The translations under genes and the position numbers were made by a program. DNA of 64,000 nt from assembly GCA_023399095.1 (NCBI GenBank), contig JAEWQS010000006.1:4550-68549 (forward strand). Reading direction: 5' to 3'. This DNA comes from Bacillota bacterium. GTDB taxonomy: Bacteria; Bacillota; Clostridia; Christensenellales; SZUA-584. This document shows, piece after piece, positions 21,196-48,760 of the stretch. Positions within the stretch are counted from its first letter, which is position 1, and each line of letters opens with the position of its first letter. A model generated the notes under the pieces. That model saw nothing but the letters and a program-made list of their open reading frames with translations, made no database searches and was not told the origin of the DNA.

Positions 21196-22146
21196 ATGAC
21201 TGTTGGAATACCTAAAGGTCTTTTGTATTCAAAATATCATGTTTTTGCCGAGTCTTTTTTTCGTGCTCTTGGAATGGATGTCGTGACGTCCCCAGACACA
21301 AATAAGGAAATACTTGATGAAGGTGTAAAATCCTGCGTAGATGACGCTTGTCTGCCGGTGAAAGTTTTTCATGGACATGTGCAATGGCTGATGGACAAAT
21401 GCGATTATTTATTGATGCCGCGCTTTTTGAGTCTTGAGAAAAGGAAGTCTCTATGCCCCATGTTCTGCGGTCTCGTGGAGATGGTTAAAAGCAGTATAAC
21501 CGGACTTCCTCCGCTTATTGATTCCCCCGTTTATTCCCTTGATAAGAAACGCTTGCAGGAATGGGCCGTGCAATCGGGCAGCTTTTTGACGAGAGACAAA
21601 AAAGCAATAGCGGATGCTTTTGAATATGCACTGGGAAAGCAAAAAAATCATCAAACAGCACTTAATGATGATGGTTACTCATACCGCATTGCCTTGATCG
21701 GGCATACGTACAATATCCACGATGCTTTCATCAACATGAATCTGGTCAAGAAACTGCACGCAATGGATATTGGTGTCGTGACTACGGAAAGCGTGGCTAA
21801 AGATGATATTGCGATTCACGCAGGCGGGCTCTACAAACCTCCGTTCTGGTATTTTGCGCGGGAATATTACGGTGCTGCCGTCAGCCTTTATAAAAACAAA
21901 CTAGTCGATGGTTTCATCTACGTGTCCGCTTTCTCGTGCGGTGTCGATTCGGTTGTTATCGAGTTGATTAATCTGGAAGCGGATTCTCTTCCCTTCATGG
22001 TTTTAAAAATCGATGAACATACCGGAGAAGCCGCTATAGATACGCGTATCGAGGCGTATGCGGATATGCTTAAAAGGAGGGTACAAATTGGTTATCACCG
22101 TCCCACGCATGGGCAACACATGCCTTGCCGCCAAAGCGTTTTTTGA
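21196..22146 (+). CDS. Acyl-CoA dehydratase activase-related protein (DUF2229-type module 1)
   Basis: N-terminal GIPKGLLY...DDACLPVKVFHGH and C-terminal KIDEHTGEAAIDTRIEAY, typical of the CoA-activase accessory domain. Confidence 0.7.
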   Translation: MTVGIPKGLLYSKYHVFAESFFRALGMDVVTSPDTNKEILDEGVKSCVDDACLPVKVFHGHVQWLMDKCDYLLMPRFLSLEKRKSLCPMFCGLVEMVKSSITGLPPLIDSPVYSLDKKRLQEWAVQSGSFLTRDKKAIADAFEYALGKQKNHQTALNDDGYSYRIALIGHTYNIHDAFINMNLVKKLHAMDIGVVTTESVAKDDIAIHAGGLYKPPFWYFAREYYGAAVSLYKNKLVDGFIYVSAFSCGVDSVVIELINLEADSLPFMVLKIDEHTGEAAIDTRIEAYADMLKRRVQIGYHRPTHGQHMPCRQSVF

Positions 22147-23185
22147 AGCTGCACACATCCCCTATGTGATGCCCGAGAAAATAAACAAACAAACATTGCA
22201 AAACGGCATTGCGCTGTCTCCGGATGAAATATGTCTGCCGTTTAAGATTCTCATGGGCAGCTATATGGATTGTATAGAAAAGGGCGCGGATACCATACTG
22301 ATTACTGGAAGCTGCGGCCCGTGCCGTTTTGGAGAATACTGTGAGCTGCAGATGAAGCTGCTAAAAAAACTCGGAACTCAGGCAGAAACGATAGTTCTTG
22401 ATGCTCCAAAAGAAATCGGGAGACAGGAGCTTCTTAGGCGAATCGGTTTGATCTCCATGGCCAGTCCTTTAAGCGCAAAGAAAAAGCTCAATGCTCTACG
22501 GCAAGCGTTTCACATATTATCCCTTGTGGACAGCATTGATGAAAAGGCGTACATGCTGGCCGGTTACGAAGTGAACAGTGGTGAATGCAAGCAATTGATT
22601 ATGGATTGCCATGAGCAAACGGAGAACTGCCGCAAGCCCAATGAAATACAAACACTTTTGAAGCAATATCTTCAAAAGCTGGGTAATGTAAAGACCGATA
22701 TGAGTAAAAAGCCGCTGCGTATCGCTTTGATTGGAGAAATCTATTCGATGGTTGAGCCGTTTGCGAATTTGTATATAGAAGAAAAGCTGATGGACTACGG
22801 TGTGAGCACCAGCCGACTTATCACACCCAGCTGGTGGCTCAAGGATCTCATAGCCAAACCGCTTAAGCTTAATTCGATGGATATTCGGCGCGCTGCCCAT
22901 GACTATCTGTCTTATAACACGGGCGGACATGCAAAGGAATCGATTGGCCATGCCGTGATATGTCAAAGAAACAATTTTGACGGTGCAATACAGATTTTTC
23001 CGCTCGGCTGCATGCCTGAAATCGTCGTCAAGGCGATTTTGCCTGTCATACAACAAGAAAAGGATTTTCCGGTGTTGACATTGGTCGTGGACGAAATGAC
23101 GGGTGAAGCGGGATATATGACGAGAATTGAAGCTTTTCTTGACATGCTGGAAGCGAAAAGAAGAAAAGGAGAGATATCAGCTTGA
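22088..23185 (+). CDS. Acyl-CoA dehydratase activase-related protein (module 2)
   Basis: The TTG start at 22088 follows AAGGAGGG. N-terminal ITVPRMGN...PDEICLPFKILMG, CGPCRFGEY, and C-terminal VDEMTGEAGYMTRIEAF. Confidence 0.7.
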   Translation: MVITVPRMGNTCLAAKAFFEAAHIPYVMPEKINKQTLQNGIALSPDEICLPFKILMGSYMDCIEKGADTILITGSCGPCRFGEYCELQMKLLKKLGTQAETIVLDAPKEIGRQELLRRIGLISMASPLSAKKKLNALRQAFHILSLVDSIDEKAYMLAGYEVNSGECKQLIMDCHEQTENCRKPNEIQTLLKQYLQKLGNVKTDMSKKPLRIALIGEIYSMVEPFANLYIEEKLMDYGVSTSRLITPSWWLKDLIAKPLKLNSMDIRRAAHDYLSYNTGGHAKESIGHAVICQRNNFDGAIQIFPLGCMPEIVVKAILPVIQQEKDFPVLTLVVDEMTGEAGYMTRIEAFLDMLEAKRRKGEISA

Positions 23186-24186
23186 ATAAAGAGTTTTGCC
23201 TTGGCATCGATGTCGGTTCAGTCAGCACAAATATTGTGTTGATCGACACAGACGGTAAGGTGGTTGAGAAGCTGTACTTACGAACGAATGGACGCCCGAT
23301 TGAGGCCATTTGCAAAGGCCTTTCCTTGCTCAAAGGCAAACTGGACGAAAGTGCCGTTATCATTGGTGCGGGCACAACGGGCAGCGGCAGGCAGTTGGCT
23401 GGTGCGATGGTGGGTGCGGATGTCATGAAAAATGAAATCACAGCGCATGCTGTGGCCGCTTGCCATGTTGTACCGGATGTGCGTACGATACTGGAAATCG
23501 GCGGCCAGGATTCAAAGATCATTCTGATTAAAGACGGCATGGTCTGTGATTTTGCCATGAATTCCGTTTGTGCGGCAGGAACGGGTTCCTTCTTAGACAG
23601 GCAGGCCTCACGCCTTGAAATTCCCATTGAAGAGTTCGGCGGTTATGCGCTGCGTTCCAAGTCCCCCGTGCGTATTGCAGGGCGTTGTGCCGTGTTTGCC
23701 GAGTCAGATATGATCAGCAAGCAACAAGCAGGTCATACGGCTGAGGATATTATTGCGGGCCTGTGCGAGGCTCTCGTTCGCAATTACTTAAATAATCTCG
23801 CTAAAGGAAAAGAAATTAGAGGCCCTATATTATTTCAAGGAGGCGTGGCTGCCAATATCGGTATCCTCTCGGCATTTGAAAAAGCACTTGGGAAAAAAGT
23901 CATTATCCCTCAGCAATACGACGTGATGGGTGCTTATGGCGCTGCCTTAATTGCCAAAGACGCAATGCTTGACAAACAAACCTGTTTTAAGGGATTTGAG
24001 AACCTGAGCCGCGAGTTCATTACCGAGAGCATCGCCTGCACAGATTGTGCCAATATGTGTGAAGTTGTCAGAATTAAGGCGGATGGCGCTTGTATTGCCC
24101 ACTGGGGTGATCGATGCGGCAAATGGGGCAATAGGATGGACACATCCGAACAAAGTGAAAAAAACAAAGAGTCGGAAGTATCGTAA
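23182..24186 (+). CDS. BcrAD/BadFG-type ATPase (acyl-CoA dehydratase activase, HgdC-like)
   Basis: LGIDVGSVSTN (phosphate 1), GTTGSGR, ILEIGGQDSK, CAAGTGSFLD. 4-nt overlap with the upstream gene. Confidence 0.85.
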   Translation: MNKEFCLGIDVGSVSTNIVLIDTDGKVVEKLYLRTNGRPIEAICKGLSLLKGKLDESAVIIGAGTTGSGRQLAGAMVGADVMKNEITAHAVAACHVVPDVRTILEIGGQDSKIILIKDGMVCDFAMNSVCAAGTGSFLDRQASRLEIPIEEFGGYALRSKSPVRIAGRCAVFAESDMISKQQAGHTAEDIIAGLCEALVRNYLNNLAKGKEIRGPILFQGGVAANIGILSAFEKALGKKVIIPQQYDVMGAYGAALIAKDAMLDKQTCFKGFENLSREFITESIACTDCANMCEVVRIKADGACIAHWGDRCGKWGNRMDTSEQSEKNKESEVS

Positions 24187-24280
24187 GCATATCTATTGTT
24201 AAAGAACAAATATTCAAAGAAACTCATAGTATACATCAGCAAACAATTCATGTTTGTTTTCGATGAAAGGAGTTTTTTTG

Positions 24281-24745
24281 ATGCCAGATGAAATGAATAC
24301 ATCAAGCGGTACGGAACTTGCGCAACGCGGCGGACGGGGTGGTTTTCCGGGTGGTGGCCCAGGTGGTTTCCCGGGGCGCGGCCCACGCGGCGGTTTCCCG
24401 GGCAGAAGATTCCCGCGCGGCGGTTTTCCGGGCAGACGGTTTCCCCGGAGATTTCCAGTAAGACAACGATTCCCCAGGTTCTTCTTCCTCCCGATCGGTT
24501 TCCCGACCGGACGGTGTTACTGGACAGATCAGTTTGGCCGATGCTGCGACCAATTTGGCCGATGCTGCGACCGGTATGGCAGATGTTCTTACAACGATAG
24601 ATATGCTGACAACCGCTTAGCGATGGGTCCCAGCCAGTCGGGCGGCTGGTATGGCGCACCGGGAAACTGGGATATGATTCCGGACTATGATGACATGATG
24701 GATTATGACATGGACGATATGGACGATATGGACGACGATTATTAA
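24281..24745 (+). CDS. Repeat-built low-complexity protein with an Arg/Gly/Pro/Phe-rich N-terminal half, D(Q/R)(F/Y)GRC(C/S) repeats and a poly-acidic D/M/Y tail
   Basis: AAAGGAG lies 8 nt upstream of the ATG at 24281, and a strong terminator lies downstream. The repeats are in frame. No homolog recognised. Confidence 0.6.
   Translation: MPDEMNTSSGTELAQRGGRGGFPGGGPGGFPGRGPRGGFPGRRFPRGGFPGRRFPRRFPVRQRFPRFFFLPIGFPTGRCYWTDQFGRCCDQFGRCCDRYGRCSYNDRYADNRLAMGPSQSGGWYGAPGNWDMIPDYDDMMDYDMDDMDDMDDDY
24386..24589 (+). repeat. In-frame tandem DNA repeats inside the 24281-24745 gene
   Basis: Two 30-nt units (24386-24415 and 24416-24445) encode RGGFPGRRFP. Two 21-nt units (24527-24547 and 24548-24568) plus a degenerate third (24569-24589) encode DQFGRCC. 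Confidence 0.75.
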
Positions 24746-25251: not shown

Positions 25252-25410
25252 ATACCCCCTTTATGTTTATTTCATTATCTATTCTATTGATACAATATTC
25301 AAACTGTGCAAATACGCCAATTTGCATTGATATGCAACCAAAAACCTAAGATGACGTCTATGGGAAGCCTTTTATTCATAATTATGATTAGAACAAAAAG
25401 GAGTCCCTCT

Positions 25411-26532
25411 ATGTACTCTACACAAGTATCACGGAAAAATATGATTGTGCTTTATCTGTCGCTGGTTTTTTTTATAATTACCGGCTTATTGCTTTTGACA
25501 CTATGTCAAGATGAAGCAAGTCCGGCTGTTAATGCCGAAAGCGAGGATTGGCAAAGGATATTGAATGGGCTATTTGATTTACGTAATGATTGTATCTTAA
25601 AACAGGATAAAGATACACTTGAAAAGATTTTTCTCACAAACGAGAAAAATGGAAGGTGGGCATATGAATTTGAGGTGCAGAGAGCGAAGTATTTAAGTGC
25701 ATGGTCAGCCAAACAAGGTGTTGATGTAACGGGCATTTGCAGTGAAATAAAAATAAAAAGCGTAAAACAAGTCGGGCGAGGCTATTCTTTTTATCTTATC
25801 TCATCAAATGAATACAAATATGTCTATAAGGATACGCCTGAGACTGAAAACATATTCCGTTTGGGTGCGTATCACTCTTTAGACCTGATTCCAAGTGACG
25901 ACGAAAACAGTTGGATCATTAGTCGGGAATGGTATGATGATCCGTTGCTTGATTCAATTAATCTGGATAATGTGACCGAAGAGATGACTACGTATATCAT
26001 GTCTCATCCCGCTATAGACATATCAGGCATCAGTGAACAACGCGTCACGGCGGTCGAGTATGCGGATATGTATTGCGGTGCAGCATCGGACGGACAAAAC
26101 AATTATGAATATAACAGCGAATATACCAACTACAATCCTTTGGGCGGAGACTGCGCGAATTTTGCTTCACAGGTTTTGCTCGAAGGCGGTTTTAAAAAGA
26201 ACGGCACATGGAATTACACCGGCGGAAAAGGCAGCCGCGCATGGGTAAATGCGCAAGGACTCAAGGATTACCTTGTATACAGCGGGCGGGCTTCAGTGCT
26301 TGCGGCAGGCAGCTATAAGGAAATATACCAGTATGCTTACAGTCTTCGCCCCGGTGATATCGTGGCGTATGTCAAAAAAGGAAAGGTGGCGCACGTGTCT
26401 GTGGTCACGGGCGCTGATTCCAAGGGATATCCCCTCGTGAGCTGTCATAATCTAGACCGCTACCGCGTGCCATGGGATATCGGCTGGAGCGGTGACAAAG
26501 TGAAATATTTTTTGCTTAACGTCAGCTATTAA
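25411..26532 (+). CDS. Membrane-anchored putative amidase-domain protein (Amidase_6 type)
   Basis: AAAGGAG upstream of the ATG at 25411 and an N-terminal TM helix. The C-terminal GGDCANFASQVLLEGGF...W...AW.NAQGL..YL and GD...Y......HV motifs are typical of the putative amidase domain. Confidence 0.7.
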   Translation: MYSTQVSRKNMIVLYLSLVFFIITGLLLLTLCQDEASPAVNAESEDWQRILNGLFDLRNDCILKQDKDTLEKIFLTNEKNGRWAYEFEVQRAKYLSAWSAKQGVDVTGICSEIKIKSVKQVGRGYSFYLISSNEYKYVYKDTPETENIFRLGAYHSLDLIPSDDENSWIISREWYDDPLLDSINLDNVTEEMTTYIMSHPAIDISGISEQRVTAVEYADMYCGAASDGQNNYEYNSEYTNYNPLGGDCANFASQVLLEGGFKKNGTWNYTGGKGSRAWVNAQGLKDYLVYSGRASVLAAGSYKEIYQYAYSLRPGDIVAYVKKGKVAHVSVVTGADSKGYPLVSCHNLDRYRVPWDIGWSGDKVKYFLLNVSY

Positions 26533-26680
26533 GGCTGCCCCTCATATGTTCATCAGCATATTCGTATAATGAGTGCCAAAGTTGAGAAACTATTACGGAG
26601 ACGGACAAACATGTAAATAGAAATGAAAATGTTTGATCGTCGGAGCAATAAGCCATGAAATCAACTTTAAGGAGACAGAC

Positions 26681-27624
26681 ATGAGCGAACAGGACAAGCC
26701 GTCTAAAGCGTTATCTGCCCGCTGCGCTTATCAGCTTGCGGACGTAGAGAAAACTGCGCCCCAATACATATCCATCAGTCCCAGATGGCTGACAAGATTT
26801 TTGGAATGGAAACCGCTTGAGTCGGGCATATTCCGGCTAAACAAGGTGAGAAAAGGTAAGAACTGTTGGAGACGCTGTGCGCCCAGTCTAACGGAGAAGA
26901 TATTCCGGAAGGCTATATTGACTATGAACCGGAGCCCCGCGAATATATTTTAACTTCCGTATCATCCATAATAAAAATCGAGACACGCGTGTCTGATATT
27001 TACAGCAAGCCATATGATCAGATAAAGGAGCAGCTGCGGCTCGGCATGGAGAGCATCAAGGAAAAACAGGAAAGCCTCATCATAAACAGCGATGATTACG
27101 GCCTGCTCAACAACATCGACGATTCACAAAGAATCAAAACGCGAGATGGGTCCCCCACGCCGGATGATCTTGATGAGCTTATCGCCAAGGTGTGGAAGCA
27201 GCCGTCTTTCTTTCTTGCGCACCCTGCCGCCATTGCCGCGTTTGGTCGCGAGTGCACACACCGCGGCGTGCCGCCGGTGGCTGTTAACCTTCATGGCTCC
27301 CCTTTCATCACATGGCGCGGCATTCCGCTTGTGCCCACTGATAAGCTTTTGGTAGACGGGCAAAGAAAGCCGTTTGGGGCAAAAGGAAAAACGAATATTT
27401 TGCTTATTCGCAGCGGTGAAGCCAATCAGGGTGTTATCGGTTTGTATCAGACGGGATTGCCCGGAGAACAGTCACGCGGTATGTCTGTGCGGTTTATGGG
27501 TATCAACAATCAGGGGATCGGTTATTACTTGCTGTCTATTTATTGTTCGGCGGCCATTTTAGCTGACGACGCTATCGCTGTTCTTGAGGACGTCGAAATC
27601 GGAAACTACTATGATTATCAATAA
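26681..27624 (+). pseudogene. Family 2A encapsulin shell protein (HK97 fold); reading frame interrupted by an apparent 1-nt frameshift between 26860 and 26892
   Basis: The frame-A ORF starts at ATG 26681 (AAGGAGA upstream) and gives ...SPRWLTRFLEWKPLESGIFRLNKV..., then stops at 26951-26953. The -1 frame is open from 26860 and gives ...GEDIPEGYIDYEPEPREYIL...RVSDIYSKPYDQIKEQLRL...WRGIPLVPTDKL.... Joined length is about 314 aa. There is no cNMP-binding insert. Confidence 0.75.
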
Positions 27625-29086
27625 TGATCTGGAAGAAATAGAGAGTGGTGCGTTTAATCAGGATACGCTCATAAGGGAATCGGTCGCTTCGCTGGCCAAA
27701 ATGTATTTCCCCGAATTTAATGTGCCTCGTTCTCAAACCTCCGAACCGGCAATCGAATCGGCAGATTTATTTGCCGATCCAATTCGCATCACTCCCCTGC
27801 TTCGATGGGACAAAGAAGAAACAACTTTGGACAGAAAAGAAGACTTGGATTTTACGCGCCAAGACTTTCCTATTCTTTCTGAACGAATAAACGATCATCC
27901 GCTTGTCTGGTTAGATAACGCCGCGACCACTCAAAAGCCTCAATGCGTAATCGACAGAATCAAGTCGTTTTACGAGCATGAAAACTCGAACGTACATCGC
28001 GGTGCGCATACGCTTGCCAAAAGAACGACAGATGCTTATGAAGACGCACGCGCCAAAGCCGCCGTTTTTCTCAATGCCTCTAAGCCCAAAGAGATTGTTT
28101 TTGTTCGCGGCACCACAGAAGCCATTAACCTTGTGGCGCATTCGTACGGTCTCACCCATCTGGATGAAGGCGATGAAGTGCTTATCACGCAGCTGGAACA
28201 CCATGCCAATTTCGTGCCATGGCAGATCGTCTGCGCCAAAACAGGCGCAAAGCTTAAGGCGTCGCCGGTTAACGAGCATGGGCAAGTTGACTTGGCAGCG
28301 TTTGAAAAGTTGCTCAACAGCAAGACAAAGATGGTGGCCATCACGCATGTGTCCAACGCGATTGGCACAATAACTCCTGCTGCTCAAATGATACGAATGG
28401 CGCACGAATATGGCGCCAGAGTGCTGGTGGACGGTGCACAGGCGGTGGCGCATCTGGCGGTGGATGTACAGGCGCTGGATTGCGATTTTTACGTATTTTC
28501 GGGTCATAAAGTATTCGGCCCCACGGGCATTGGGATTCTGTATGCAAAATCCAAGTTGCTTGATGAGATGCCGCCCTATCAGGGCGGCGGCAGCATGATC
28601 GAGGATGTTTCGTTAGAAAGCACAAAATATAAAGCCCCTCCCCACCGTTTTGAAGCGGGAACGGGCAATATCGCGGGTGCAATAGGGCTTGGCGCGGCGC
28701 TTGATTATGTCAGGTGCGTGGGGCTTGATCGTATCGAGCAATACGAACAACGCTTGCTCACACTCGCTATTAAGTCTTTGGAAAGTGTCCCGGGTCTTAA
28801 GTTCATAGGCAAGCCGCAAACAGGAATCGTTTCGTTTTTACTGAATGACGTTTCTCCGGATGAAGTCGGAAAGCGGCTCGACGAGAAAGGCATTGCCGTC
28901 CGTGCGGGCCACCACTGCGCCCAGCCCATACTACGGCATCTCGGCTATGAAAGCACCGTCCGTATGTCGCTTGCCTTTTACAACACACGATCTGAAATTG
29001 ACCGTCTTGCAAACGTACTTAAGAACACCGGCAAAGCCACATCGTATTGGACTTTTCCGCCTATTCCTCCAGCAATGCCTGATTAA
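27611..29086 (+). CDS. SufS/type II cysteine desulfurase with an ~80-aa N-terminal extension (encapsulin cargo type)
   Basis: PLP lysine in FSGHKVFGPTGIG, catalytic Cys in RAGHHCAQP, and LDNAATTQKP near the core N-terminus. The N-terminal extension contains SLAKMYFPEF. The ATG overlaps the shell gene end by 14 nt. Confidence 0.85.
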   Translation: MIINNDLEEIESGAFNQDTLIRESVASLAKMYFPEFNVPRSQTSEPAIESADLFADPIRITPLLRWDKEETTLDRKEDLDFTRQDFPILSERINDHPLVWLDNAATTQKPQCVIDRIKSFYEHENSNVHRGAHTLAKRTTDAYEDARAKAAVFLNASKPKEIVFVRGTTEAINLVAHSYGLTHLDEGDEVLITQLEHHANFVPWQIVCAKTGAKLKASPVNEHGQVDLAAFEKLLNSKTKMVAITHVSNAIGTITPAAQMIRMAHEYGARVLVDGAQAVAHLAVDVQALDCDFYVFSGHKVFGPTGIGILYAKSKLLDEMPPYQGGGSMIEDVSLESTKYKAPPHRFEAGTGNIAGAIGLGAALDYVRCVGLDRIEQYEQRLLTLAIKSLESVPGLKFIGKPQTGIVSFLLNDVSPDEVGKRLDEKGIAVRAGHHCAQPILRHLGYESTVRMSLAFYNTRSEIDRLANVLKNTGKATSYWTFPPIPPAMPD

Positions 29087-31278: not shown

Positions 31279-31791
31279 ATGAGCACAAAACCTGTTAAAG
31301 CCAAGCAAGGCTGCTGCAAGGAATGCAATGATGACAAATTCGCAGCCATTGCCAACGTCATTGATTTGTACAAGGACAAGGAAGGAAGCCTGATACAGAT
31401 CCTCCATCTTGCCCAGCAGATCTATGGATATCTGCCGCTGGAGGTTCAGATCTTCATCGCGGATTCGCTTAAAGTTCCGCTGTCCGAGGTATCCGGGGTG
31501 ATTACATTTTACTCGTTTTTCTCCACTGAGCCAAGAGGACGCCATACCATTCGCGTCTGCCTTGGAACAGCTTGCTACGTAAGAGGCGGCAAAAAAATTG
31601 TGGAAAGCCTCAAGGAAAAGCTGGACGTGGATATTGGCTCCACAACCAAGGATGGTAAATTCACTTTTGAGGTTGCAAGATGCATTGGCGCTTGCGGGCT
31701 TGCTCCGGCCATGATGATAGACGACGTTGTCTACAAACAGGTTAATGTTAACAAACTCAATTCAATATTGGCCAAATATGATAACGAATAA
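31279..31791 (+). CDS. NuoE/HydC-like [2Fe-2S] thioredoxin-fold subunit
   Basis: Cys pattern VCLGTACYVRG...CIGACGLAP. GGAGG lies upstream. Confidence 0.85.
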   Translation: MSTKPVKAKQGCCKECNDDKFAAIANVIDLYKDKEGSLIQILHLAQQIYGYLPLEVQIFIADSLKVPLSEVSGVITFYSFFSTEPRGRHTIRVCLGTACYVRGGKKIVESLKEKLDVDIGSTTKDGKFTFEVARCIGACGLAPAMMIDDVVYKQVNVNKLNSILAKYDNE

Positions 31792-31804
31792 GGAGGTGAG
31801 CGGT

Positions 31805-34800
31805 ATGAAATCAGCCAGAATAAAGACAATTGACCAGCTAAACGAGATCAAGGAAAGATACAATTCCGAGCTGGAAAAATATAAATATCGGATATTCGTC
31901 TGCGCAGGCGCAGGCTGCGTCTCGTCTAACTGCTCTCTTGTCCGGGATGCAGTCATCAGTGAGCTTAAGAACGTCAAAATGCAGGATGAAGTTAAAGTGT
32001 TTGAAACCGGTTGTATGGGAACATGCGCGGTTGGCCCTGTCATGCTTGTGATGCCGGATAAGGTTTTCTACACAGAGCTTGATGAGGATAAAGCGCGTCA
32101 GATCGTCCGCACGCATATCAAAAACGGCCATACCATCGTCCCTTACACGTTCTATGACCATTCGCTTGGCGAACATATTCCAAACATCGACGACATCGGT
32201 TTCTTTAAAAAGCAGGTCAAAATCGCTCTGCGCAACTGCGGCTCCATGGAATACGCGGACATTGAAGCCTATATTGCACGGGACGGCTATTACGCCGCTT
32301 ATAAAGCGCTAAAGGATATGACACCGCAGACAGTCGTACAGGAGGTCAAAACGTCGGGCATCAAGGGGCGCGGCGGTGCAGGCTTCCCCACAGGCGTAAA
32401 ATGGGATGCGGCTCATAAGCAGCAAAGTGAAAGCAAGTATATCGTATGCAACGCGGACGAGGGTGATCCAGGCGCTTTCATGGACAGAAGCATTATCGAG
32501 GGTGATCCCCATACCGTCATCGAAGGCATGCTGATCGGTGGATATGCCATTGGAGCCACAACGGGTTACATCTACGTGCGTGCTGAGTACCCCATCGCGG
32601 TAGACAGAATGACGGCGGCACTGGATGAAGCGAGAAACAGAGGTTTGCTCGGGAAAAACATATTCGGGAGCGGCTTTTCATTTGATATCGAGCTAAGAAT
32701 CGGCGCGGGCGCTTTTGTATGCGGTGAGGAAACATCGCTGATGGCGTCTATTGAAGGCCATCGCGGCGAGCCAAAGCAAAAACCGCCTTTCCCGTTCCAA
32801 AGAGGTCTTTTCGGCAAGCCGACCATCATAAACAATGTCGAGACGCTGGCGAGCATACCGATGATCATACTCAGCGGCGGCGAGTGGTACACACAGTTCG
32901 GCACCGAAAAGAGCAGAGGCACAAAAGTCTTTGCGCTTGCGGGTGACGTCATGAACACGGGTATCGTTGAAGTGCCCATCGGCATACCGCTTGGCGATAT
33001 CATATTCGAAATCGGAGGCGGAACCGTCAACAAGAAGAAATTCAAATCCGCGCAGATCGGCGGACCTTCGGGCGGCTGCATCACGACGGATAATCTCAAC
33101 GTACCGACAGACTACGAACCGTTAAAGGAGCTGGGTGCGATTATGGGCTCGGGCGGGCTTATCGTTATGAACGAGGATACCTGCATGGTCGATACCGCAC
33201 GGTTTTTTATGGATTTTATCAAGGATGAATCCTGCGGCAAATGTACGGCCTGTCGTATCGGCACCAAACGCATGCTTGAGATACTCGAGCGTATCACACG
33301 GGGCGAAGGTGAAGAAGGCGATGTGGAGCTGCTCATCGAGCTTGGCGAGACAATTCAGGAGACAGCCATGTGCGGCCTCGGTCAGACGGCGCCGAATCCT
33401 GTGCTTTCCACCATCAAGTATTTCCGCGAGGAATATGACGAGCACATCAGAAACAAATACTGCCGCGCGGGTGTGTGCAGCGATCTGTTCATTTCGCCGT
33501 GTGAGAATACGTGCCCCGCCAATGTCAACGTGCCGGGTTATATGTCGCTTATCGCCGCAGGACGGTTCACCGATGCGTATAAGCTGATCCGGCAGGAAAA
33601 CCCCTTCCCTGCCGTTTGCGGACGAATCTGCACACGGCCATGCGAAAGCAAATGCCGTAGGCGCACGGTCGACGAAGCGCTGGCCATTTGCGATCTCAAG
33701 CGGTTTGTCGCCGACTACGCAATGAATAATGGTAAAAATGCGTATCAGACCGATGTTGTGTTCCCGAAAAACGGGAAGAGTATTGCAGTGATCGGCGCGG
33801 GCGCGTCGGGGCTGACGTGCGCGTATTATCTTGCGCGTATCGGTTATGATGTGGATGTATTTGAATCGCATAACACAGCAGGCGGCGTGCTGGCATATGG
33901 CATTCCCGAATACCGTCTGCCCAAGGACGTGCTTGACTATGAAGTCAGGCTCATCGAACAGGCGGGTGTCAAAATTCATTTAAATACTGAGGTGGGGCGT
34001 GATATCACGTTCAAAGAGCTCAAAGCGACATATGACGCGATTTATATCGCAACGGGTACGCAATTGCCGCAAAAAATCAATGTGCCCGGAGAGAGCCTTC
34101 CAGGCGTTATGCATGGCATCAAGTTTTTAAAGAAAGCCAACACGCACTCTCCCATCGAAATGGGCAAAAACGTGGTCGTCATCGGCGGCGGCAATACGGC
34201 GATAGACTCCGCAAGGACAGCGCTGCGTTTGGGAGCGGAAAAGGTGACGATACTGTACAGGCGCACCTGTGATTCAATGCCGGCGTACGAGCAGGAAATA
34301 CGTGAAGCCGTGGAAGAAGGCATTGAGATCATATCACTTGCTGCACCCGTGCGCTTCATTCAGGGCGCTGATGGACGCATATCAAAAATCGAATGTATCA
34401 AGATGTGCCTTGGCGATTTCGATGCGTCTTGCCGCAGGCGCAGCGTTTACGTGGAGGATTCAAATTTCTTCATTGATGCCGATATGGTCATACCTGCTGT
34501 CAGCCAGTTTGCAGATTTCCCGTTTATCGGAAAAGACGAGATTGGCCTGACGCCTTGGGGCACGTTTATACTGCAAAGCGATACGCAGATGACCACGATG
34601 GATGGCGTATTCGCTGGCGGCGATGTCACCCGCGGGCCTGACGAGGTGATACGCGCGATTGCGGACGGTAAAAAAGCAGCAATTTCAATCGACAAATATC
34701 TTGGCGGCAAAGGCCATCTCAATAAGGGTGAACCAATTGACATTCCCGAAACCACGGATGAAGACGACATCGTGGCTCATGGCCGGTTTGATCTTGAGAT

Positions 34801-34909
34801 ACTTGATCCGAAAACACGTAAATATTCATTCGACGAAGTGATTAAGGGTTACCATAAGCTCAATGCGATGGCAGAAGCGATGCGCTGTCTGCATTGTGAA
34901 AGGAGGTAG
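31805..34909 (+). CDS. Fusion protein of a NuoF/HydB-like FMN/NADH subunit (N-terminal ~550 aa) and a GltD/NfnB-like FAD/NAD(P)H oxidoreductase (C-terminal ~480 aa)
   Basis: N-terminal 2Fe-2S thioredoxin-like domain (CAGAGC...CMGTC). NuoF motifs are GRGGAGFPTG, NADEGDPGAFMDR and ESCGKCTACRIG. These are followed by GltD-type Cys motifs (CENTCP...CGRICTRPCESKC), IAVIGAGASGL (FAD) and VVVIGGGNTAID (NADPH). ATG at 31805 follows AAGGAGGTGA. Confidence 0.85.
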   Translation: MKSARIKTIDQLNEIKERYNSELEKYKYRIFVCAGAGCVSSNCSLVRDAVISELKNVKMQDEVKVFETGCMGTCAVGPVMLVMPDKVFYTELDEDKARQIVRTHIKNGHTIVPYTFYDHSLGEHIPNIDDIGFFKKQVKIALRNCGSMEYADIEAYIARDGYYAAYKALKDMTPQTVVQEVKTSGIKGRGGAGFPTGVKWDAAHKQQSESKYIVCNADEGDPGAFMDRSIIEGDPHTVIEGMLIGGYAIGATTGYIYVRAEYPIAVDRMTAALDEARNRGLLGKNIFGSGFSFDIELRIGAGAFVCGEETSLMASIEGHRGEPKQKPPFPFQRGLFGKPTIINNVETLASIPMIILSGGEWYTQFGTEKSRGTKVFALAGDVMNTGIVEVPIGIPLGDIIFEIGGGTVNKKKFKSAQIGGPSGGCITTDNLNVPTDYEPLKELGAIMGSGGLIVMNEDTCMVDTARFFMDFIKDESCGKCTACRIGTKRMLEILERITRGEGEEGDVELLIELGETIQETAMCGLGQTAPNPVLSTIKYFREEYDEHIRNKYCRAGVCSDLFISPCENTCPANVNVPGYMSLIAAGRFTDAYKLIRQENPFPAVCGRICTRPCESKCRRRTVDEALAICDLKRFVADYAMNNGKNAYQTDVVFPKNGKSIAVIGAGASGLTCAYYLARIGYDVDVFESHNTAGGVLAYGIPEYRLPKDVLDYEVRLIEQAGVKIHLNTEVGRDITFKELKATYDAIYIATGTQLPQKINVPGESLPGVMHGIKFLKKANTHSPIEMGKNVVVIGGGNTAIDSARTALRLGAEKVTILYRRTCDSMPAYEQEIREAVEEGIEIISLAAPVRFIQGADGRISKIECIKMCLGDFDASCRRRSVYVEDSNFFIDADMVIPAVSQFADFPFIGKDEIGLTPWGTFILQSDTQMTTMDGVFAGGDVTRGPDEVIRAIADGKKAAISIDKYLGGKGHLNKGEPIDIPETTDEDDIVAHGRFDLEILDPKTRKYSFDEVIKGYHKLNAMAEAMRCLHCERR

Positions 34910-34915
34910 TCAGAT

Positions 34916-36940
34916 ATGATTAATTTGCAGATTAACGGCCGCTCGGTGACGGTACCCGAGGACTACACAATCATGGAAGCAGCTAAAACTGTGGGAATTA
35001 AAATTCCCGGGCTTTGCCAAATGGACGGTGTACACCAGTTTGGCTCCTGCCGCATTTGTGTTGTGGAGGTCAAAGGCGCGAAAACACTGCAGGCGTCATG
35101 CCTGGCAAAGGTCGCCGAAGGCATGATTGTGGATACAAATACGGCAAAGGTGAGAAACGCACGGCGCGTGCTCTATGAGCTGCTGCTTTCCGATCATGAT
35201 AAGGACTGCTTAAGCTGTACGAGAAACCAGAGCTGTGAGCTTCAGGAGCTTGGAAAAGTTCTCGGTGTGAGCGAATCGCGCTTCGACGGCGAACACTCGG
35301 AATTTAATCTTGACTCCTCCGTATCCATTACACGCAATATGTCAAAATGCGTGCTGTGTAGGCGCTGCGTCACTGTCTGCAACGAGATTCAGGGAACAGG
35401 AATACTCAACGCGCAGAATCGCGGGTTCCAGACTGTGATTGGCCCAGCGATGGATTTAAAGCTGGGCACCGTCAACTGCGTATTCTGCGGACAGTGTACG
35501 GTGGTTTGTCCGGTGGGTGCGCTCAAGGAAACCGATGCCATACAGCCTGTTTGGAAAGCACTCAGCGACGAGAAAAAAAGATGTGTGGTGCAGGTGGCTC
35601 CTGCAATTCGTGTGGCGATTGGTGAAGAGTTTGGGTATGAACCCGGCGCGCGCGTAACAGGCAAGCTTGCGCAGGCGCTTTCCACGCTGGGGTTCGATGA
35701 CATTTTCGATACGAATTTCACCGCTGACCTTACGATTATGGAGGAAGGCACCGAATTTTTGACACGTGTGAAAAAAGCGTTGACGGGAGGCGAAGCCATG
35801 CTGCCGATGATTACATCGTGCAGCCCGGGCTGGATCAAATATATCGAGCATTCATATCCTGACCTTCTCCCCCATCTGTCAACGTGCAAATCGCCGCATA
35901 CCATGCTGGGTGCGTTGGTCAAATCGTTCTATGCTGAAAAGATCGGCTGCGATCCAAAAGACATGTACGTGGTGTCGGTGATGCCGTGTACCGCCAAGAA
36001 GTTTGAGATCAGCCGTCATGAGATGTGCAATAATGACGTTCCCAATGTGGATGCGGTGCTCACAACAAGAGAGCTTGGGCAAATGGTACGTGAAGCCGGT
36101 ATCGACTTTACTTTGCTGGAAGATCGTGAGTTTGATAATCCGCTTGGCATGTCGACAGGCGCTGCTGATATTTTCGGCGTCACAGGGGGCGTCATGGAAG
36201 CTGCGCTGCGTACCGTATATGAGCTTGTTACAGGGCGCGAACTGCCGTTTGACAAGCTGCATGTCGCACCGATTGTAGGCTTGGAACAAATAAAAACAGC
36301 TGAGATCAAGATTGAAGATACACTGCCGGATTATAAATTCCTGGAAGGCGTTGTCGTGAAGGTGGCTGTGACGAGCGGCCTTTCAGGCGCGAAGATACTC
36401 ATGGATCAAATTAAAAATGGAGAATCACCTTACCACTTTATTGAGGTGATGGGCTGCCCCAATGGATGCATTATGGGCGGCGGACAACCGAGATCCAAAG
36501 ATCCGGATGTAAGGACAAAACGTTTTCAGGGTATTTATGACGAAGATGAAGCCAAGGTCATGCGCAAATCGCATGAGAATCCTTCTGTCAAAAAGCTTTA
36601 TGAAGAGTATCTGGAATTCCCAAACAGCCATGTGTCACACAAACTGCTGCATACGCATTATGTCAAACGCGGACGGTTTAATGAGTTCCTGGAGGACGAA
36701 TATGTGAATGAAGAGGTGATTCCTATGGCGGAAAAGAACAAAGCATCTGCCAAGCAGACGCAAAAAAAAACGGCTCAGGAGCGCGCATCCAGACGGGTTC
36801 ATGAGGACTTAGAGTCGGTCAAAGTCATGTCCTTGGAGGCTGAGGTAACCCGGCTCAAACAGGAATTATCCGATTCTCAGGAAACTGTCGAGATATTAAA
36901 AGATGTGATGAGCGATTACGCTAAAAAGCCCAAAAGATAA
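34916..36940 (+). CDS. hydA: [FeFe]-hydrogenase large-subunit-like protein (M3-type F-cluster N-terminus) with variant P1 motif TSCSPGW and an ~88-aa C-terminal coiled-coil extension
   Basis: N-terminal plant-type 2Fe-2S (CQMDG...GSCRICVVEV), His-ligated 4Fe-4S and 2x CxxCxxCxxxCP. H-cluster motifs are P2 VMPCTAKKFE and P3 EVMGCPNGCIMGGGQP. P1 reads TSCSPGW, whereas the canonical motif is TSCCPxW. Confidence 0.85.
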   Translation: MINLQINGRSVTVPEDYTIMEAAKTVGIKIPGLCQMDGVHQFGSCRICVVEVKGAKTLQASCLAKVAEGMIVDTNTAKVRNARRVLYELLLSDHDKDCLSCTRNQSCELQELGKVLGVSESRFDGEHSEFNLDSSVSITRNMSKCVLCRRCVTVCNEIQGTGILNAQNRGFQTVIGPAMDLKLGTVNCVFCGQCTVVCPVGALKETDAIQPVWKALSDEKKRCVVQVAPAIRVAIGEEFGYEPGARVTGKLAQALSTLGFDDIFDTNFTADLTIMEEGTEFLTRVKKALTGGEAMLPMITSCSPGWIKYIEHSYPDLLPHLSTCKSPHTMLGALVKSFYAEKIGCDPKDMYVVSVMPCTAKKFEISRHEMCNNDVPNVDAVLTTRELGQMVREAGIDFTLLEDREFDNPLGMSTGAADIFGVTGGVMEAALRTVYELVTGRELPFDKLHVAPIVGLEQIKTAEIKIEDTLPDYKFLEGVVVKVAVTSGLSGAKILMDQIKNGESPYHFIEVMGCPNGCIMGGGQPRSKDPDVRTKRFQGIYDEDEAKVMRKSHENPSVKKLYEEYLEFPNSHVSHKLLHTHYVKRGRFNEFLEDEYVNEEVIPMAEKNKASAKQTQKKTAQERASRRVHEDLESVKVMSLEAEVTRLKQELSDSQETVEILKDVMSDYAKKPKR

Positions 36941-36960: not shown

Positions 36961-36990
36961 AAAAGCCGGTTATGTGCCGGCTTTTACTTT
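36961..36990 (+). terminator. Rho-independent terminator after the hydrogenase operon
   Basis: Stem AAAAGCCGG/CCGGCTTTT with a 7-nt loop and a T-rich tail. It overlaps the 3' end of the convergent gerA-family gene. Confidence 0.6.
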
Positions 36991-38450
36991 TCATTTTTTT
37001 CGTTTTGTATCGGCGCTCGCGTATTGTCCTTGTTTCTTAAATATGCGGGGCGATGTGGGGCGATAGACTTGCTGTACACAATTGATTTGAGAAAATCTCG
37101 CATGTTAAATGGTGCAGCAGGCGCCATATATGGCACGCCGAACGTGTTAATGGATACAAGATGTGAAATAATAAGGACAACGACGAGAGTAAATCCATAA
37201 AAGCCAAATGTACCTGATGCGATGATTAACAAGAATTTTAAAATGCGAAACGGATTAACAATCATGTAGTCAGACGGTACGAAAGACGCGATAAGGGACA
37301 TCGAAATAACGATTAACAGCAGCGGGCTGAATACTCCCGCTGAAACCGCAGCTTGACCGATAATAATTGCCCCGACGATACCTATAGCAGTACCGATTTT
37401 GGTGGGTACTCGAATCAACGATTCTCTGATCAGTTCGCCGATTGTTTCAATAAGCAGCACTTCAATCAGCGCATTGAACGGCACCTTTGCCCGGCTTTCA
37501 GCTATAGCGATCATGTAGGTTCCGGGCAACACATCGTTGTGGAAGGATACAATTGCCACGTAAATAGAGGAAACAGCAAAAGAGATGTTGAGAGAAATGA
37601 CCCGTAGAATCCTCATGAATGTGCCAAAGTATTTATTGGCATAAAAATCATCGCATGACCATATATATTCGCTGAACACCTTTGGCGCGACAAGCGCCCA
37701 TGGACTGCCATCCATGATAATGACAACCTTGCCTTCTAAAATAGCTCCGCATGCCATATCCGAGCGCTCAATAATTCCCATCTGAGGGAAAATGCTTCTC
37801 TGATTGTTAAGCAGATACGATTCTAGTTCGCCCGAGGAAACAAGCCCGTCAACATCAACTTTTGATATTCTTTTCTTGATTTCGGTTATACAAGTATTGT
37901 TGGCGACATCTTCAAGATAAAGAATCGCAATACTTGTTTTTGTTCTCCTGCCCACTTTCATGCTTTCAACACGCAAATTCTCGTCCTTTATTCGGTACCT
38001 AACAAGCGAGAGATTGGTATCAAGATTTTCAATGAATGCGTCTCTTGGCCCTCTTATCGTGTAGGTAAACTCAGGAACAGGGATAGCACGTTTCTCAACT
38101 TTTTTAATATCCATGACCAGGTATTGGTTATCAGAGGAGAATAAAGCGACTGTCATGCCGCTCAATATGTATTGCTCAATTTTCGCTTTATCTGAATCCA
38201 GCGTGCATTGGCTGGCGCTGACAATATTCGCCGCATCGGCGGCTTTCACATTCGTCTGCCCATTAGTTGCTGCAAGTGGCTTTATGACATACTCTGATAT
38301 TCCCGTTAGATCGGTGAGTTCTTTAATATAAAACAAAGAGATAGATTCAGATTTTAACGAGATCGTTCGTTGTACAACATCCATGTTCTTTTCTCTGATT
38401 GCGCTGATTATGTTCTCATATCTTATGTTCTGATTGTTCTGCCTCTGCAT
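36984..38450 (-). CDS. Spore germination protein, GerA family A subunit
   Basis: 488 aa with the typical soluble N-domain and a C-terminal 5-TM region (PLLLIVISMSLIASF...). Last gene of a B-C-A operon. Confidence 0.85.
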   Translation of the reverse strand: MQRQNNQNIRYENIISAIREKNMDVVQRTISLKSESISLFYIKELTDLTGISEYVIKPLAATNGQTNVKAADAANIVSASQCTLDSDKAKIEQYILSGMTVALFSSDNQYLVMDIKKVEKRAIPVPEFTYTIRGPRDAFIENLDTNLSLVRYRIKDENLRVESMKVGRRTKTSIAILYLEDVANNTCITEIKKRISKVDVDGLVSSGELESYLLNNQRSIFPQMGIIERSDMACGAILEGKVVIIMDGSPWALVAPKVFSEYIWSCDDFYANKYFGTFMRILRVISLNISFAVSSIYVAIVSFHNDVLPGTYMIAIAESRAKVPFNALIEVLLIETIGELIRESLIRVPTKIGTAIGIVGAIIIGQAAVSAGVFSPLLLIVISMSLIASFVPSDYMIVNPFRILKFLLIIASGTFGFYGFTLVVVLIISHLVSINTFGVPYMAPAAPFNMRDFLKSIVYSKSIAPHRPAYLRNKDNTRAPIQNEKNEK

Positions 38451-38460
38451 TAATTCTCCT

Positions 38461-39600
38461 CTATTTAGCGAGTTTCTGGCCCATTGTTTCGAAATCCATC
38501 ATGTTCCCCATCAAAAGATTGGACTCGGCCGATACTGTGAAACTTGCATTCAAATAAGTATCTTTCCAATTGATATTTTTCAGCACATTCGGATATTTAA
38601 TGCGAAAATGTTCTTTAAACTGTAGATAGTCGCACTGCACTTCTTTTGAATGCATGAGAGCTTGTGATATATCCCCCAATATCGCATTCAGCAGGTTTTG
38701 CGTCACGTCTTTTTGAATGTGTTCATCAAACTTGGTATTCTTGCTAAGATACATAACCTTGGATTCAAACTTAAATTTTAAATCAAACTTCAATTTCCCA
38801 TTTTCGTAAGTTGGTTTATACTTTTTAATTTTTAGAGTTACCTCTATTGTTGCTTCACTGTCATCAAACGGAATCACATACAAACGTTTTATGTTATCTC
38901 CTAAAATCCAGACAAGACCTCTTGACTGTTCTACAGGGATAAAATCTATAAGTTTGTTTTCATGAAAAACGGTAAAACCGTTGTATGTAAGTACACCATC
39001 TTCAACATCCAAATTGGGTAGCACAAAGCATGTATTGCTGTAGATAAACTCAAGCAAGTCCGAAACCGTGTATACGTGTATCTTCTCCAACGCCTTTAGA
39101 CTCTTGATAGTGTCATCAATGGATTCTCCAATGGACACATTATTTGGCGGCTGAACAGCTAGAATATCTTCTGGGCTCGAAAAGGATGTCACAACATTGA
39201 GCGTTTTTCTGTACTGCACATCCGATTGCATACGCAGCATATACTCCTCTATGCCAGCCTTTCCGAGATCGTCAGTAATTACAAGCGCTTTTACAGTACC
39301 TAAAAAAATAGGATTGTCTGTTTTTGCATTTAAATGCCTCCTTGCGTCCGCAAAAGTTGTACCCTTAGCATATATCATTTGGTAGCTTTTTTTACTTGCA
39401 TAGTCTCCAATACCTGGCTGATTCTGTCCTTGGCCTAAATTCGGGGATTCTATATAAAAAGCAAAATCATCATCCTGTTTATCTGAAATAACAGTGACAA
39501 CCAGCGTTTTGTTATTGACATCCATTGAATCCCAGCATCCCGATCCCACAAATAAAAAGCCAATTATTAAGAAGATACACGATGCTATTTTAAGACGCAT
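38461..39600 (-). CDS. Ger(x)C family germination lipoprotein
   Basis: Lipobox FVGSGCWD, with size and pattern typical of GerAC-type proteins. It overlaps the upstream B subunit by 11 nt. Confidence 0.8.
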   Translation of the reverse strand: MRLKIASCIFLIIGFLFVGSGCWDSMDVNNKTLVVTVISDKQDDDFAFYIESPNLGQGQNQPGIGDYASKKSYQMIYAKGTTFADARRHLNAKTDNPIFLGTVKALVITDDLGKAGIEEYMLRMQSDVQYRKTLNVVTSFSSPEDILAVQPPNNVSIGESIDDTIKSLKALEKIHVYTVSDLLEFIYSNTCFVLPNLDVEDGVLTYNGFTVFHENKLIDFIPVEQSRGLVWILGDNIKRLYVIPFDDSEATIEVTLKIKKYKPTYENGKLKFDLKFKFESKVMYLSKNTKFDEHIQKDVTQNLLNAILGDISQALMHSKEVQCDYLQFKEHFRIKYPNVLKNINWKDTYLNASFTVSAESNLLMGNMMDFETMGQKLAK

Positions 39601-40699
39601 TTCTTTTGCCTTTCTTTTGAACTTTTCTTATTTTTGCCAGAAACAATAGGCATACCGGAATCACAAAGCAGGTCATAAGACCTAAATATGTACCAATATC
39701 CTCAACGAATTGTTCATATTTGGCCAAGTCTTTCACAAGGAAGAATATGATGTAAGTTATAATCCCAATAATTGTTATAATCATTGACTTTTTAATGTTA
39801 TTAAAAATACGACTTAAATACTCTGCGATAACAGCAATAACAATGGAGAAACCCACAAAAAGAGCGCTAAAACCGATTGTCAGATATAAAATGTCCATCC
39901 TTGTGAAAATTACTATCTTTTCAGGAGAAGTATCGCGAATAGCCACAATCAGAGCATCTTTGAAATTAACAATATCATTGAGTCCAACCTTCATTATGCA
40001 GCTTTCGACCAAAAAGATATAAAACAAACCGATAAACATAATTGTTAGAAATGCTGTTCTTTTTGCTTTTTTGCCGTTTTTTTTGGTTAGTGGAATAGCC
40101 AGCAGCAACTCGATTCCTAAAAAAGGAAATATTGAGTATTTAAAAGCTTCGACATAGTTTTTAATTTCAGCTGCATTAAAAAAAGGCTGTATGCGACTAA
40201 TCTTCCCTTGAGATACCATAATTAAATGCACAAAAATAGCAGTAATAATAAAAACAACGCCGATGAGCTCTGCCAATCGGCTGACGTTTGTGATTCCTTT
40301 ATTGGCAATAAAGCAGAAAACAGGTATGCCTATAAGAGGGAAAGACCAAAGCGGCGTCTGCGGAAAAAAATCCGCCTTAAGAAGGCGGGCGTTCATTGTG
40401 ACTAAATAAACGACAATGAAAAAAAAGTACATTACATAAAAAATAACAACGATGTATGTTGCTGGTTTACCAATGATTTGAGGCGCATATTCAAACAACA
40501 TCTTTCCCTGAAACATGCTGTTAAGACTAACTATAATCACAGCGGCCACGCCGAAAATGAGCGCCGTTAATATAAGTGTTATCCAATTTCCCGTTCCTGC
40601 GCTCTCAGCCATCACTTTAGGTATCACAATGACGCTGTAGCATGTCAACGTGATAATGAGAACCATGACCATCTGCCTGTTCGTTATGCTGTTCATCAA
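39590..40699 (-). CDS. Spore germination permease, GerAB/APC-superfamily B subunit
   Basis: 369 aa, about 10 TM helices, N-terminal ITNRQM motif typical of GerXB proteins. Confidence 0.8.
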   Translation of the reverse strand: MMNSITNRQMVMVLIITLTCYSVIVIPKVMAESAGTGNWITLILTALIFGVAAVIIVSLNSMFQGKMLFEYAPQIIGKPATYIVVIFYVMYFFFIVVYLVTMNARLLKADFFPQTPLWSFPLIGIPVFCFIANKGITNVSRLAELIGVVFIITAIFVHLIMVSQGKISRIQPFFNAAEIKNYVEAFKYSIFPFLGIELLLAIPLTKKNGKKAKRTAFLTIMFIGLFYIFLVESCIMKVGLNDIVNFKDALIVAIRDTSPEKIVIFTRMDILYLTIGFSALFVGFSIVIAVIAEYLSRIFNNIKKSMIITIIGIITYIIFFLVKDLAKYEQFVEDIGTYLGLMTCFVIPVCLLFLAKIRKVQKKGKRNAS

Positions 40700-48686: not shown

Positions 48687-48760
48687 CAGTATGCTCCTTT
48701 TGCATTTTCTTTTATGATTATTATGCAGCAATGAGCATTTTTTTATGTATAAAATCGCTA

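Follow-up and report, generated by a model that had tools for sequence, protein, structure and literature searches.

A two-gene family 2A desulfurase encapsulin operon with a probable recent deletion in its shell gene in an uncultured Clostridia anaerobe

Can a bacterium still build a desulfurase nanocompartment when the gene for the shell of that compartment is interrupted? This question is raised by two overlapping genes (26681-27624 and 27611-29086) in the 64,000-nucleotide stretch of Bacillota DNA analysed here (the window), which an earlier note, made from the letters alone, had interpreted as an encapsulin shell gene followed by the gene of its cysteine desulfurase (CyD) cargo. The pair is almost certainly a two-gene family 2A desulfurase encapsulin operon, consisting of shell and cargo. 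As to its present state, the reading that we favour, with some reserve, is that the shell gene of this operon has suffered a genuine and recent inactivating deletion.

As the shell reading frame is interrupted, a product of 314 amino acids (aa) exists only once two frames, A and B, are joined. Frame A opens at ATG 26681 and encodes the start MSEQDK...SPRWLTRFLEWKPLESGIFRLNKVRKGK followed by 30 unrelated residues, i.e. a literal product of 90 aa with its stop (TAA) at 26951-26953, as taken from the list of open reading frames (ORFs) and read directly from the letters. Frame B is closed on its 5' side by a TAA at 26857-26859 and, beginning with GAA 26860, stays open as far as its stop (27622-27624); gene callers annotate it solely as a 252-aa ORF starting at TTG 26866. 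With frame A stopped at 26953 and frame B closed at 26857-59, the window holds no full-length, uninterrupted shell reading frame. The joined shell is made of 59 native codons, one broken codon and 254 further codons, and the resulting 314 aa is the length shared by nearly all of the 120 best shell homologues. The earlier note gave the product about 314 aa, which is correct after joining; that the gene is broken as sequenced was only implied there by the words 'joined' and 'repaired'. The coordinates of the features are collected in Table 1.

Profile searches assign the joined shell to family 2A. It matched the whole of NF041162 (positions 1-295 of 295; 484.9 bits, E 7e-146), the NCBIfam equivalog 'family 2A encapsulin nanocompartment shell protein', which has a curated cutoff of 380 bits, and frame B alone reached 414.7 bits over positions 53-295 of this profile. 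The sole Pfam match of the joined shell was the SrpI-like family PF19307 (321.5 bits, E 3.7e-96; E 9.2e-96 for frame B alone). The 2B profile NF041163 gave 377.9 bits, below its cutoff of 400, and was matched in two stretches, a main one (209-449) and an N-terminal fragment alone (2-49). The insertion of the 2B profile that binds cyclic nucleoside monophosphate (cNMP; positions ~50-208) remained unmatched, which indicates a shell without the cNMP insert. This agrees with the earlier note, which had based its assignment on an N-terminal family 2 signature, on HK97-type blocks and on the missing insert: signature and blocks are all present (RVSDIYSKPYDQIKEQLRL and WRGIPLVPTDKL are both located in frame B), and the scores above the 2A cutoff and below the 2B cutoff bear out the subtype. 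The profile search proposed there as a check thus places the repaired shell in family 2A, not 2B, and the placement outside the family, which the note had named as a refutation, did not come about.

Searches of the joined shell against the PDB with phmmer retrieved 8T6R (E 4.9e-119, residues 4-313), the SrpI entry 6X8M (E 1.8e-115), and 9KSL and 8WOL (mycobacterial Mmp1/MMP-I shells, ~E 3e-101), the matches being essentially full length. Over its full length the joined shell is ~55% identical to solved 2A shells (53% to SrpI and 56% to 8T6R in the fold-search alignments). When an AlphaFold model of the shell was compared by Foldseek, 6X8M, 8T6R and 8WOL came out on top, followed by 2B shells and then by HK97-type phage capsids; the structural comparison that the note had suggested therefore retrieved SrpI first. 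The model is weak (mean predicted local distance difference test score, pLDDT, 51.7; input alignment of 36 sequences with too little diversity), and because of this low confidence the weight of the fold assignment rests on the sequence matches.

The product of the second gene has the class V aminotransferase fold (PF00266, E 2.1e-147) and reaches 568 bits with the SufS model TIGR01979 (cutoff 475). Its top family is NF041166, ahead of SufS with 723.6 bits; this is the NCBIfam model 'family 2A encapsulin nanocompartment cargo protein cysteine desulfurase', of 623 positions. What the earlier note had said of this gene was confirmed throughout, i.e. a complete SufS-type desulfurase overlapping the shell gene by 14 nucleotides (nt), with the SGHK and RAGHHCAQP motifs and an extra N-terminal domain. 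The shell-plus-cargo architecture of SrpI/CyD, also recognised there, is upheld by the best score of the downstream gene on the family 2A cargo model. Of the 20 aligned Clostridial relatives, 19 share the 14-nt overlap of the window, and the cargo start M[IT][IT]N recurs in relatives. Beyond the SufS domain the desulfurase carries a tail of ~20 aa, KNTGKATSYWTFPPIPPAMPD.

Residues 20-36 of CyD (LIRESVASLAKMYFPEF), within the N-terminal extension, align with ..[LM]A..YFPE[FL] of the aligned Clostridial relatives and with actinobacterial LTRMASELFSAL; cargos of Actinomycetota and Acidobacteriota have LTRMA[SN]E[LF]F at this place. By these alignments, the stretch corresponds to the published loading motif 1 and is a putative loading element. 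In Synechococcus elongatus this motif, LARLANEFFS, lies in the first 100 cargo residues, which sufficed for loading, at lower efficiency (PMC8049743). The Clostridial extensions are 81-154 aa long (most of them 81-99) with 14-32% Pro/Gly/Ser, and those from other phyla measure 156-320 aa with 35-42% Pro/Gly/Ser.

A survey of related genomes, as recommended in the earlier note, showed that the shell-desulfurase pair recurs. Of 36 genome loci recovered with a shell, 34 have the desulfurase gene directly after the shell gene; the two exceptions are L024, a 2-kb contig ending right after the shell, and L037, a badly frameshifted metagenome-assembled genome (MAG). In the protein database, the shell has homologues of 66-92% identity in at least 120 clusters. 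Clustering of the flanks of 21 Clostridial loci left shell and desulfurase alone as conserved, and the flanking genes of the window recur only in L002 and L003. L002 is the closest relative, a syntenic MAG ('Bacillota bacterium OH_PBB_253'); an OH_PBB MAG was described in one paper as originating from an anaerobic digester (PMC13135261). The relatives are altogether 'Bacillota', 'Clostridiales', 'Oscillospiraceae' and 'Papillibacter' MAGs. The recurrent neighbours of the Clostridial loci are not related to sulfur: CoA-enzyme activase, DeoD purine nucleoside phosphorylase, DUF4004, HMGL-like, bactofilin, radical SAM, LigB/AMMECR1 and a two-component system; rhodanese and serine acetyltransferase are not among these recurrent families. 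A PNP_UDP_1 neighbour was considered as a methylthioadenosine/S-adenosylhomocysteine nucleosidase, which was rejected, as it is DeoD. In L037 (Actinomycetota MAG MFD02581.bin.2.29; 7955-8912) the shell is split over several frames and the desulfurase also appears fragmented, a pattern suggestive of indel noise in long reads or of decay of the locus.

When the DNA of the window was aligned with that of four intact relatives, the break in the shell gene could be traced to one missing base. The gap sits between GGT (26855-57) and AAG (26858-60), where the relatives have GGT-CAA, GGT-GAA or GGG-GAG. The exact 252-aa shell product is on record from NCBI, ENA and Logan (longest contig 68.7 kb), and the Logan assembly of SRR13358366 is identical to the window through the deletion site; the NCBI/ENA and Logan records are probably two assemblies of the same data. 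Compared with L002, whose shell is intact (314 aa, 92% aa identity), codons 1-59 are 97% identical with a ratio of nonsynonymous to synonymous substitution rates (dN/dS) of 0.024, and the part downstream of the break has a dN/dS of 0.063, dS being ~0.6-0.7 on both sides; the values for neighbouring genes range from 0.05 to 0.14. The shell differs at 1 of 111 otherwise invariant positions, no more than intact homologues do. As the rest of the shell gene still looks fully constrained, the lesion, if real, must be very recent. It is either a very recent inactivation or a read-level error, and we think it probable that the deletion is real.

Were it an artefact of sequencing or assembly, the organism would have an intact 314-aa shell and a normal desulfurase-loaded 2A nanocompartment, a possibility to which we give a minor but substantial share. 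It would account for the 254 open downstream codons under strong purifying selection, for the lack of any surplus of changes at invariant shell positions, and for the intact state of all Clostridial relatives in which the shell is complete in the locus. Two different assemblers yielded the same sequence, which speaks for a true deletion, yet the NCBI/ENA and Logan contigs may stem from the same run. Similarly, the deletion site (GGT|AAG) is not a long homopolymer, but the lost base may have been part of a short run of A (GGT[A]AAGAA). Against an error stands also the 17-kb region that is syntenic with L002 and can be compared gene by gene, as no other gene in it shows a frameshift-like change of length. 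Moreover, indels in short-read consensus sequences are rarer than genuine pseudogenes. Several observations weigh against a real, shell-inactivating deletion in a functional type of family 2A operon. As the two assemblies were probably made from one set of reads, the lesion is compatible with a systematic error of reads or consensus, and the flawless 254 downstream codons are equally compatible with a sequencing error. JGI metagenomes, scanned for exact patterns of both alleles (intact and deleted), yielded 0 matches; the JGI relative L039 stops at a contig edge downstream of the deletion site and is uninformative on the allele. The score of CyD (723.6 bits) lies under the NF041166 cutoff of 800, and only positions 221-621 of the profile were matched. 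This shortfall results from a short N-terminal domain, as the profile expects ~220 aa and CyD has 82; the cargo of the intact relative L002 is also under the cutoff (719.6), and that of the actinobacterial L027 above it (857.7). The second loading motif (AASPYYFLDG type), searched for with the regular expression [FY][YFA]FL..[GAD], was found in none of the 21 Clostridial extensions, the window included, and in 4 of 8 actinobacterial or acidobacterial ones. Finally, no Clostridial member is known to assemble, to load cargo or to store sulfur.

Two further explanations leave the deletion in place and deny it the effect that we ascribe to it. According to one of them, the break is bypassed, either by a -1 slip near 26857-26860, giving a full-length shell, or by re-initiation at TTG 26866, giving a truncated functional shell. 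A -1 shift exactly at the break would restore the 314-aa product, but G-GUA-AGA does not qualify as a slippery heptamer, mispairing at the first codon position would result if tRNA-Lys slipped from AAG to UAA, and the frame-B TAA at 26857-59 leaves an interval of just a few nucleotides for the event. As the relatives have a plain uninterrupted gene with no conserved recoding signal, and the site is not slippery, recoding is unlikely, and programmed frameshifting was rejected on these sequence grounds. As for re-initiation, the 252-aa ORF is what gene callers call, and AAAAGG ~9 nt 5' of TTG 26866 might act as a weak ribosome-binding site; the truncated product would, however, be devoid of residues 1-62, among them the PRW motif and the N-arm. 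We therefore judge a bypass to be very improbable. The other explanation denies the nanocompartment altogether and regards the locus as a decaying prophage capsid gene next to a housekeeping SufS for Fe-S assembly. The shell gene is indeed broken, the desulfurase passes the SufS model (568 against a cutoff of 475) and fails the cutoff of the cargo model, and Fe-S-rich enzymes (an [FeFe] hydrogenase operon and a CoA-enzyme activase) are encoded nearby. However, Pfam scans of the window detected no phage genes and no SufB, SufC, SufD, SufE or SufU domains, the shell matches an encapsulin equivalog while phage capsids reach only 8-14% identity, and the cargo model outscores the SufS model. The pair, its 14-nt overlap and the N-terminal motif also recur across phyla while the flanks vary. 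A prophage remnant was rejected on context and profile scores, and we find this explanation scarcely credible.

The consequences of a genuine deletion can be pictured from the intact form of the system, as known from the relatives and from published work (PMC10836720, PMC8049743). In that form, the 314-aa HK97-fold protein would assemble into a 60-subunit shell of ~24 nm, inside which the SufS-type desulfurase would be tethered via its disordered N-terminal extension, here probably by the motif SLAKMYFPEF. The encapsulated enzyme would convert L-cysteine to L-alanine, and the freed sulfur would build up as protected elemental sulfur. With the single-base deletion in codon 60, translation of the shell would end at 26953 after 90 aa, and we infer that such a product would be unable to form a shell. 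A product restarted from TTG 26866 would lack residues 1-62, among them the near-invariant PRW motif and the whole N-arm. As the N-arm makes the chain-mail contacts between shell subunits (PMC10836720), such a product would probably not assemble. Most likely, then, no compartment is made by this genome. Just a weak GGA lies 5' of the desulfurase start, and in most relatives this start and the shell stop overlap, an arrangement that suggests translational coupling. A genuine lesion would abolish the coupling, and the desulfurase, if expressed at all, would be free in the cytosol. The earlier note is right as to the identity of the locus; as to its state, the shell gene is broken as sequenced and the genome may make no compartment.

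Table 1. Positions of the operon features in the window, and of fused CoA-enzyme activase genes in related loci
Feature	Position	Strand	Basis
Shine-Dalgarno sequence AAGGAG	26669..26674	+	6 nt 5' of the shell ATG; direct sequence reading
Shell codons 1-59, frame A, N-arm region including SPRWLTRFLEWKPLESGIFRLNKV	26681..26857	+	NF041162 profile 1-63 matched
1-nt deletion, first base of codon 60 missing	26857..26858	+	DNA alignment with four intact relatives
Out-of-frame tail of frame A, KNCWRRCAPSLTEKIFRKAILTMNRSPANIF	26858..26953	+	premature TAA at 26951-26953
Shell codons 61-314 and stop, frame B, SrpI-like HK97-fold body	26860..27624	+	profile matches
Cysteine desulfurase cargo (CyD), 491 aa, intact	27611..29086	+	ATG 27611, 14-nt overlap with shell stop 27624
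CyD N-terminal extension, 82 aa, putative cargo-loading domain	27611..27856	+	upstream of RQDFPIL, where all SufS homologues begin
LIRESVASLAKMYFPEF, CyD residues 20-36, counterpart of the LARLANEFFS loading motif	27668..27718	+	alignment
SGHK, pyridoxal phosphate (PLP)-binding lysine motif, CyD residues 297-300	28499..28510	+	aligned to solved desulfurases
RAGHHCAQP, catalytic cysteine loop, CyD residues 431-439	28901..28927	+	aligned to solved desulfurases
Fused CoA-enzyme activase in relatives	L009 1803-5963; L011 3501-7877; L012 2109-6440		

Family 2A desulfurase encapsulins are well documented. They were described in S. elongatus (PMC8049743), catalogues list 1,281 operons in 12 phyla (PMC8346489) and 1,462 operons in 11 phyla (PMC10836720), and the system of Acinetobacter baumannii was shown to store crystalline elemental sulfur (PMC10836720). 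Of the four operon organisations that have been distinguished, all comprise shell and desulfurase, and rhodanese and acetyltransferase are optional, 'often' present partners (PMC10836720). The adjacent rhodanese and L-serine O-acetyltransferase of a four-gene operon are lacking at our locus; Pfam scans of the window ORFs of 90 aa or more revealed neither, and the locus therefore consists solely of the pair that every published operon type shares. As the published scheme keeps just shell and desulfurase obligatory, a two-gene operon is a known type, and the novelty claimed for the locus in the earlier note was overrated. It is further weakened by the fact that homologues from Clostridia, Negativicutes and Peptococcaceae already carry the family 2A name in NCBI/UniRef.

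The system of A. baumannii 118362 (PDB 8T6R; Benisch et al. 2024, PMC10836720) resembles that of the window in its shell without cNMP insert and in the SufS-type cargo encoded immediately 3', with an N-terminal loading extension. By analogy, the same chemistry, i.e. conversion of cysteine to alanine and storage of elemental sulfur inside, would be expected here. The A. baumannii operon, however, has four genes (rhodanese, serine acetyltransferase, shell and desulfurase) and that of the window two. Its loading domain is ~225 aa long, rich in Pro/Gly/Ser, with five partly conserved motifs, in contrast to 82 aa, 15% Pro/Gly/Ser and one recognisable motif in the window. A. baumannii is an aerobe, whereas the host of the window is a strict anaerobe, and the shell gene of the window is frameshifted. 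With SrpI/CyD of S. elongatus (PDB 6X8M, 6X8T; Nichols et al. 2021, PMC8049743), the locus shares a desulfurase cargo with an N-terminal targeting domain. Motif 1, LARLANEFFS in S. elongatus, reads SLAKMYFPEF in the window, and AASPYYFLDG, its second motif, is without counterpart in all 21 Clostridial cargos examined, that of the window among them. SrpI is induced by sulfur starvation, while Pfam and Rfam scans of the window revealed no sulfur-related neighbour or riboswitch.

Counterparts already named in databases are Firmicutes 2A shells (Sporobacter termitidis, Marasmitruncus massiliensis, Pelotomaculum spp., Anaerosinus massiliensis), which are 314 aa long, 69-76% identical and named 'family 2A encapsulin nanocompartment shell protein' or 'Type 2A encapsulin shell protein'. 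Their genes are intact, unlike that of the window; the MAG relatives share with the window both the two-gene layout and the short loading domain. The literature searched contained no experimental study of the named Firmicutes members, and no specific discussion of Firmicutes members. Family 2B encapsulins (e.g. that of Streptomyces griseus, PDB 9BHU) have the HK97-fold body in common with the shell of the window, but they carry the cNMP-binding insertion, and the best-described 2B systems have terpene cyclase or polyprenyl transferase cargos.

The locus is thus an ordinary member of the catalogued desulfurase-encapsulin system: the family, its cargo, the loading principle and the sulfur-storage chemistry are already published, and curated models already name the Firmicutes homologues. 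The only points that are mildly new are the short, single-motif Clostridial loading domain, scoring below the cargo cutoff, and the broken shell. One may speculate, with a low expectation of being right, that the Clostridial clade constitutes a distinct functional variant, with a minimal loading domain of ~80-150 aa in which YFPE[FL] is the sole motif, with neither rhodanese nor acetyltransferase as partners and with strictly anaerobic hosts, in which sulfur storage serves another purpose than in aerobes; the strain of the window would then be a natural shell-null mutant with an orphaned cargo. If so, candidate roles in sulfide-rich, reducing habitats would be the detoxification of cysteine or the keeping of sulfur in reserve for enzymes rich in Fe-S, e.g. 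the hydrogenase and CoA-enzyme activase encoded nearby. The literature searched contained no study on a desulfurase encapsulin of a strict anaerobe. If the frameshift is genuine, it demonstrates that loss of the shell is possible. In practical terms, pipelines that apply the NF041166 cutoff presumably name the Clostridial cargos (720-724 bits) plain SufS, by which the compartment context is lost, and the extension of these cargos, with 82 aa in the window and a core motif of ~17 aa, is a candidate for a 2A targeting tag that is short by nature.

Apart from the operon, the window provides information on the host. Of the 63 non-overlapping window ORFs with 90 aa or more, three belong to shell and desulfurase; in Pfam scans of the remaining 60, no rhodanese, serine acetyltransferase, sulfate-assimilation or Suf scaffold domain was detected. 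This agrees with the earlier note, which had seen no sulfate-assimilation, cysE or rhodanese genes in the window. A search of the whole window with Rfam at gathering threshold gave no match, and no S-box or T-box was found upstream of the operon; the counts from promoter and terminator scans were at chance level. The immediate neighbours are an Amidase_6 protein, an M14 peptidase and an OmpR-type response regulator, the first two of which the note had named correctly. The presence of Ger, Tlp and [FeFe] hydrogenase genes points to a spore-forming, fermentative anaerobe; the host is an uncultured, spore-forming, hydrogen-producing Clostridia anaerobe, as far as spore formation and anaerobiosis are concerned the same conclusion as in the note. 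The genes in question are a GerA/GerAC/spore-permease germinant receptor operon (36984-40699), the gene of the small acid-soluble spore protein Tlp (48450-48731) and a HydABC-like [FeFe] hydrogenase operon (31279-36940). A rex gene also lies nearby in the window. The middle gene of the hydrogenase operon (31727-34909; 1060 aa) encodes a NuoF-like part (Complex1_51K, NADH_4Fe-4S) fused to a GltD/NfnB-like part (Fer4_20, Pyr_redox_2), an uncommon fusion, which may couple the hydrogenase to NADPH.

On the 3' side, the M14 peptidase gene runs towards the desulfurase gene, and 26 nt at the 3' end of the latter (29061-29086) are shared by both. The start of the Amidase_6 gene (25306-26532) is uncertain, as the longest ORF, from a GTG, has 408 aa, against 373 aa in the public call; the Amidase_6 domain spans residues 245-403. 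Further upstream, the ORF at 24254-24745 encodes 163 aa rich in Gly/Pro/Arg/Phe (with repeats such as GGFPGRRFPR) and an acidic Asp/Met/Tyr tail; it has no Pfam match and is kept at the same position in L002 and L003 with ~60% identity. The CoA-enzyme activase (BcrAD_BadFG and DUF2229; 21196-24186) is found upstream of the shell in the window and in 5 of the 21 Clostridial relatives. In the window, L002 and L003, three separate ORFs encode it, and in L009, L011 and L012 it is fused into a single protein of 1386-1458 aa. Its proximity to the shell may be a recurrent association or merely reflect shared ancestry.

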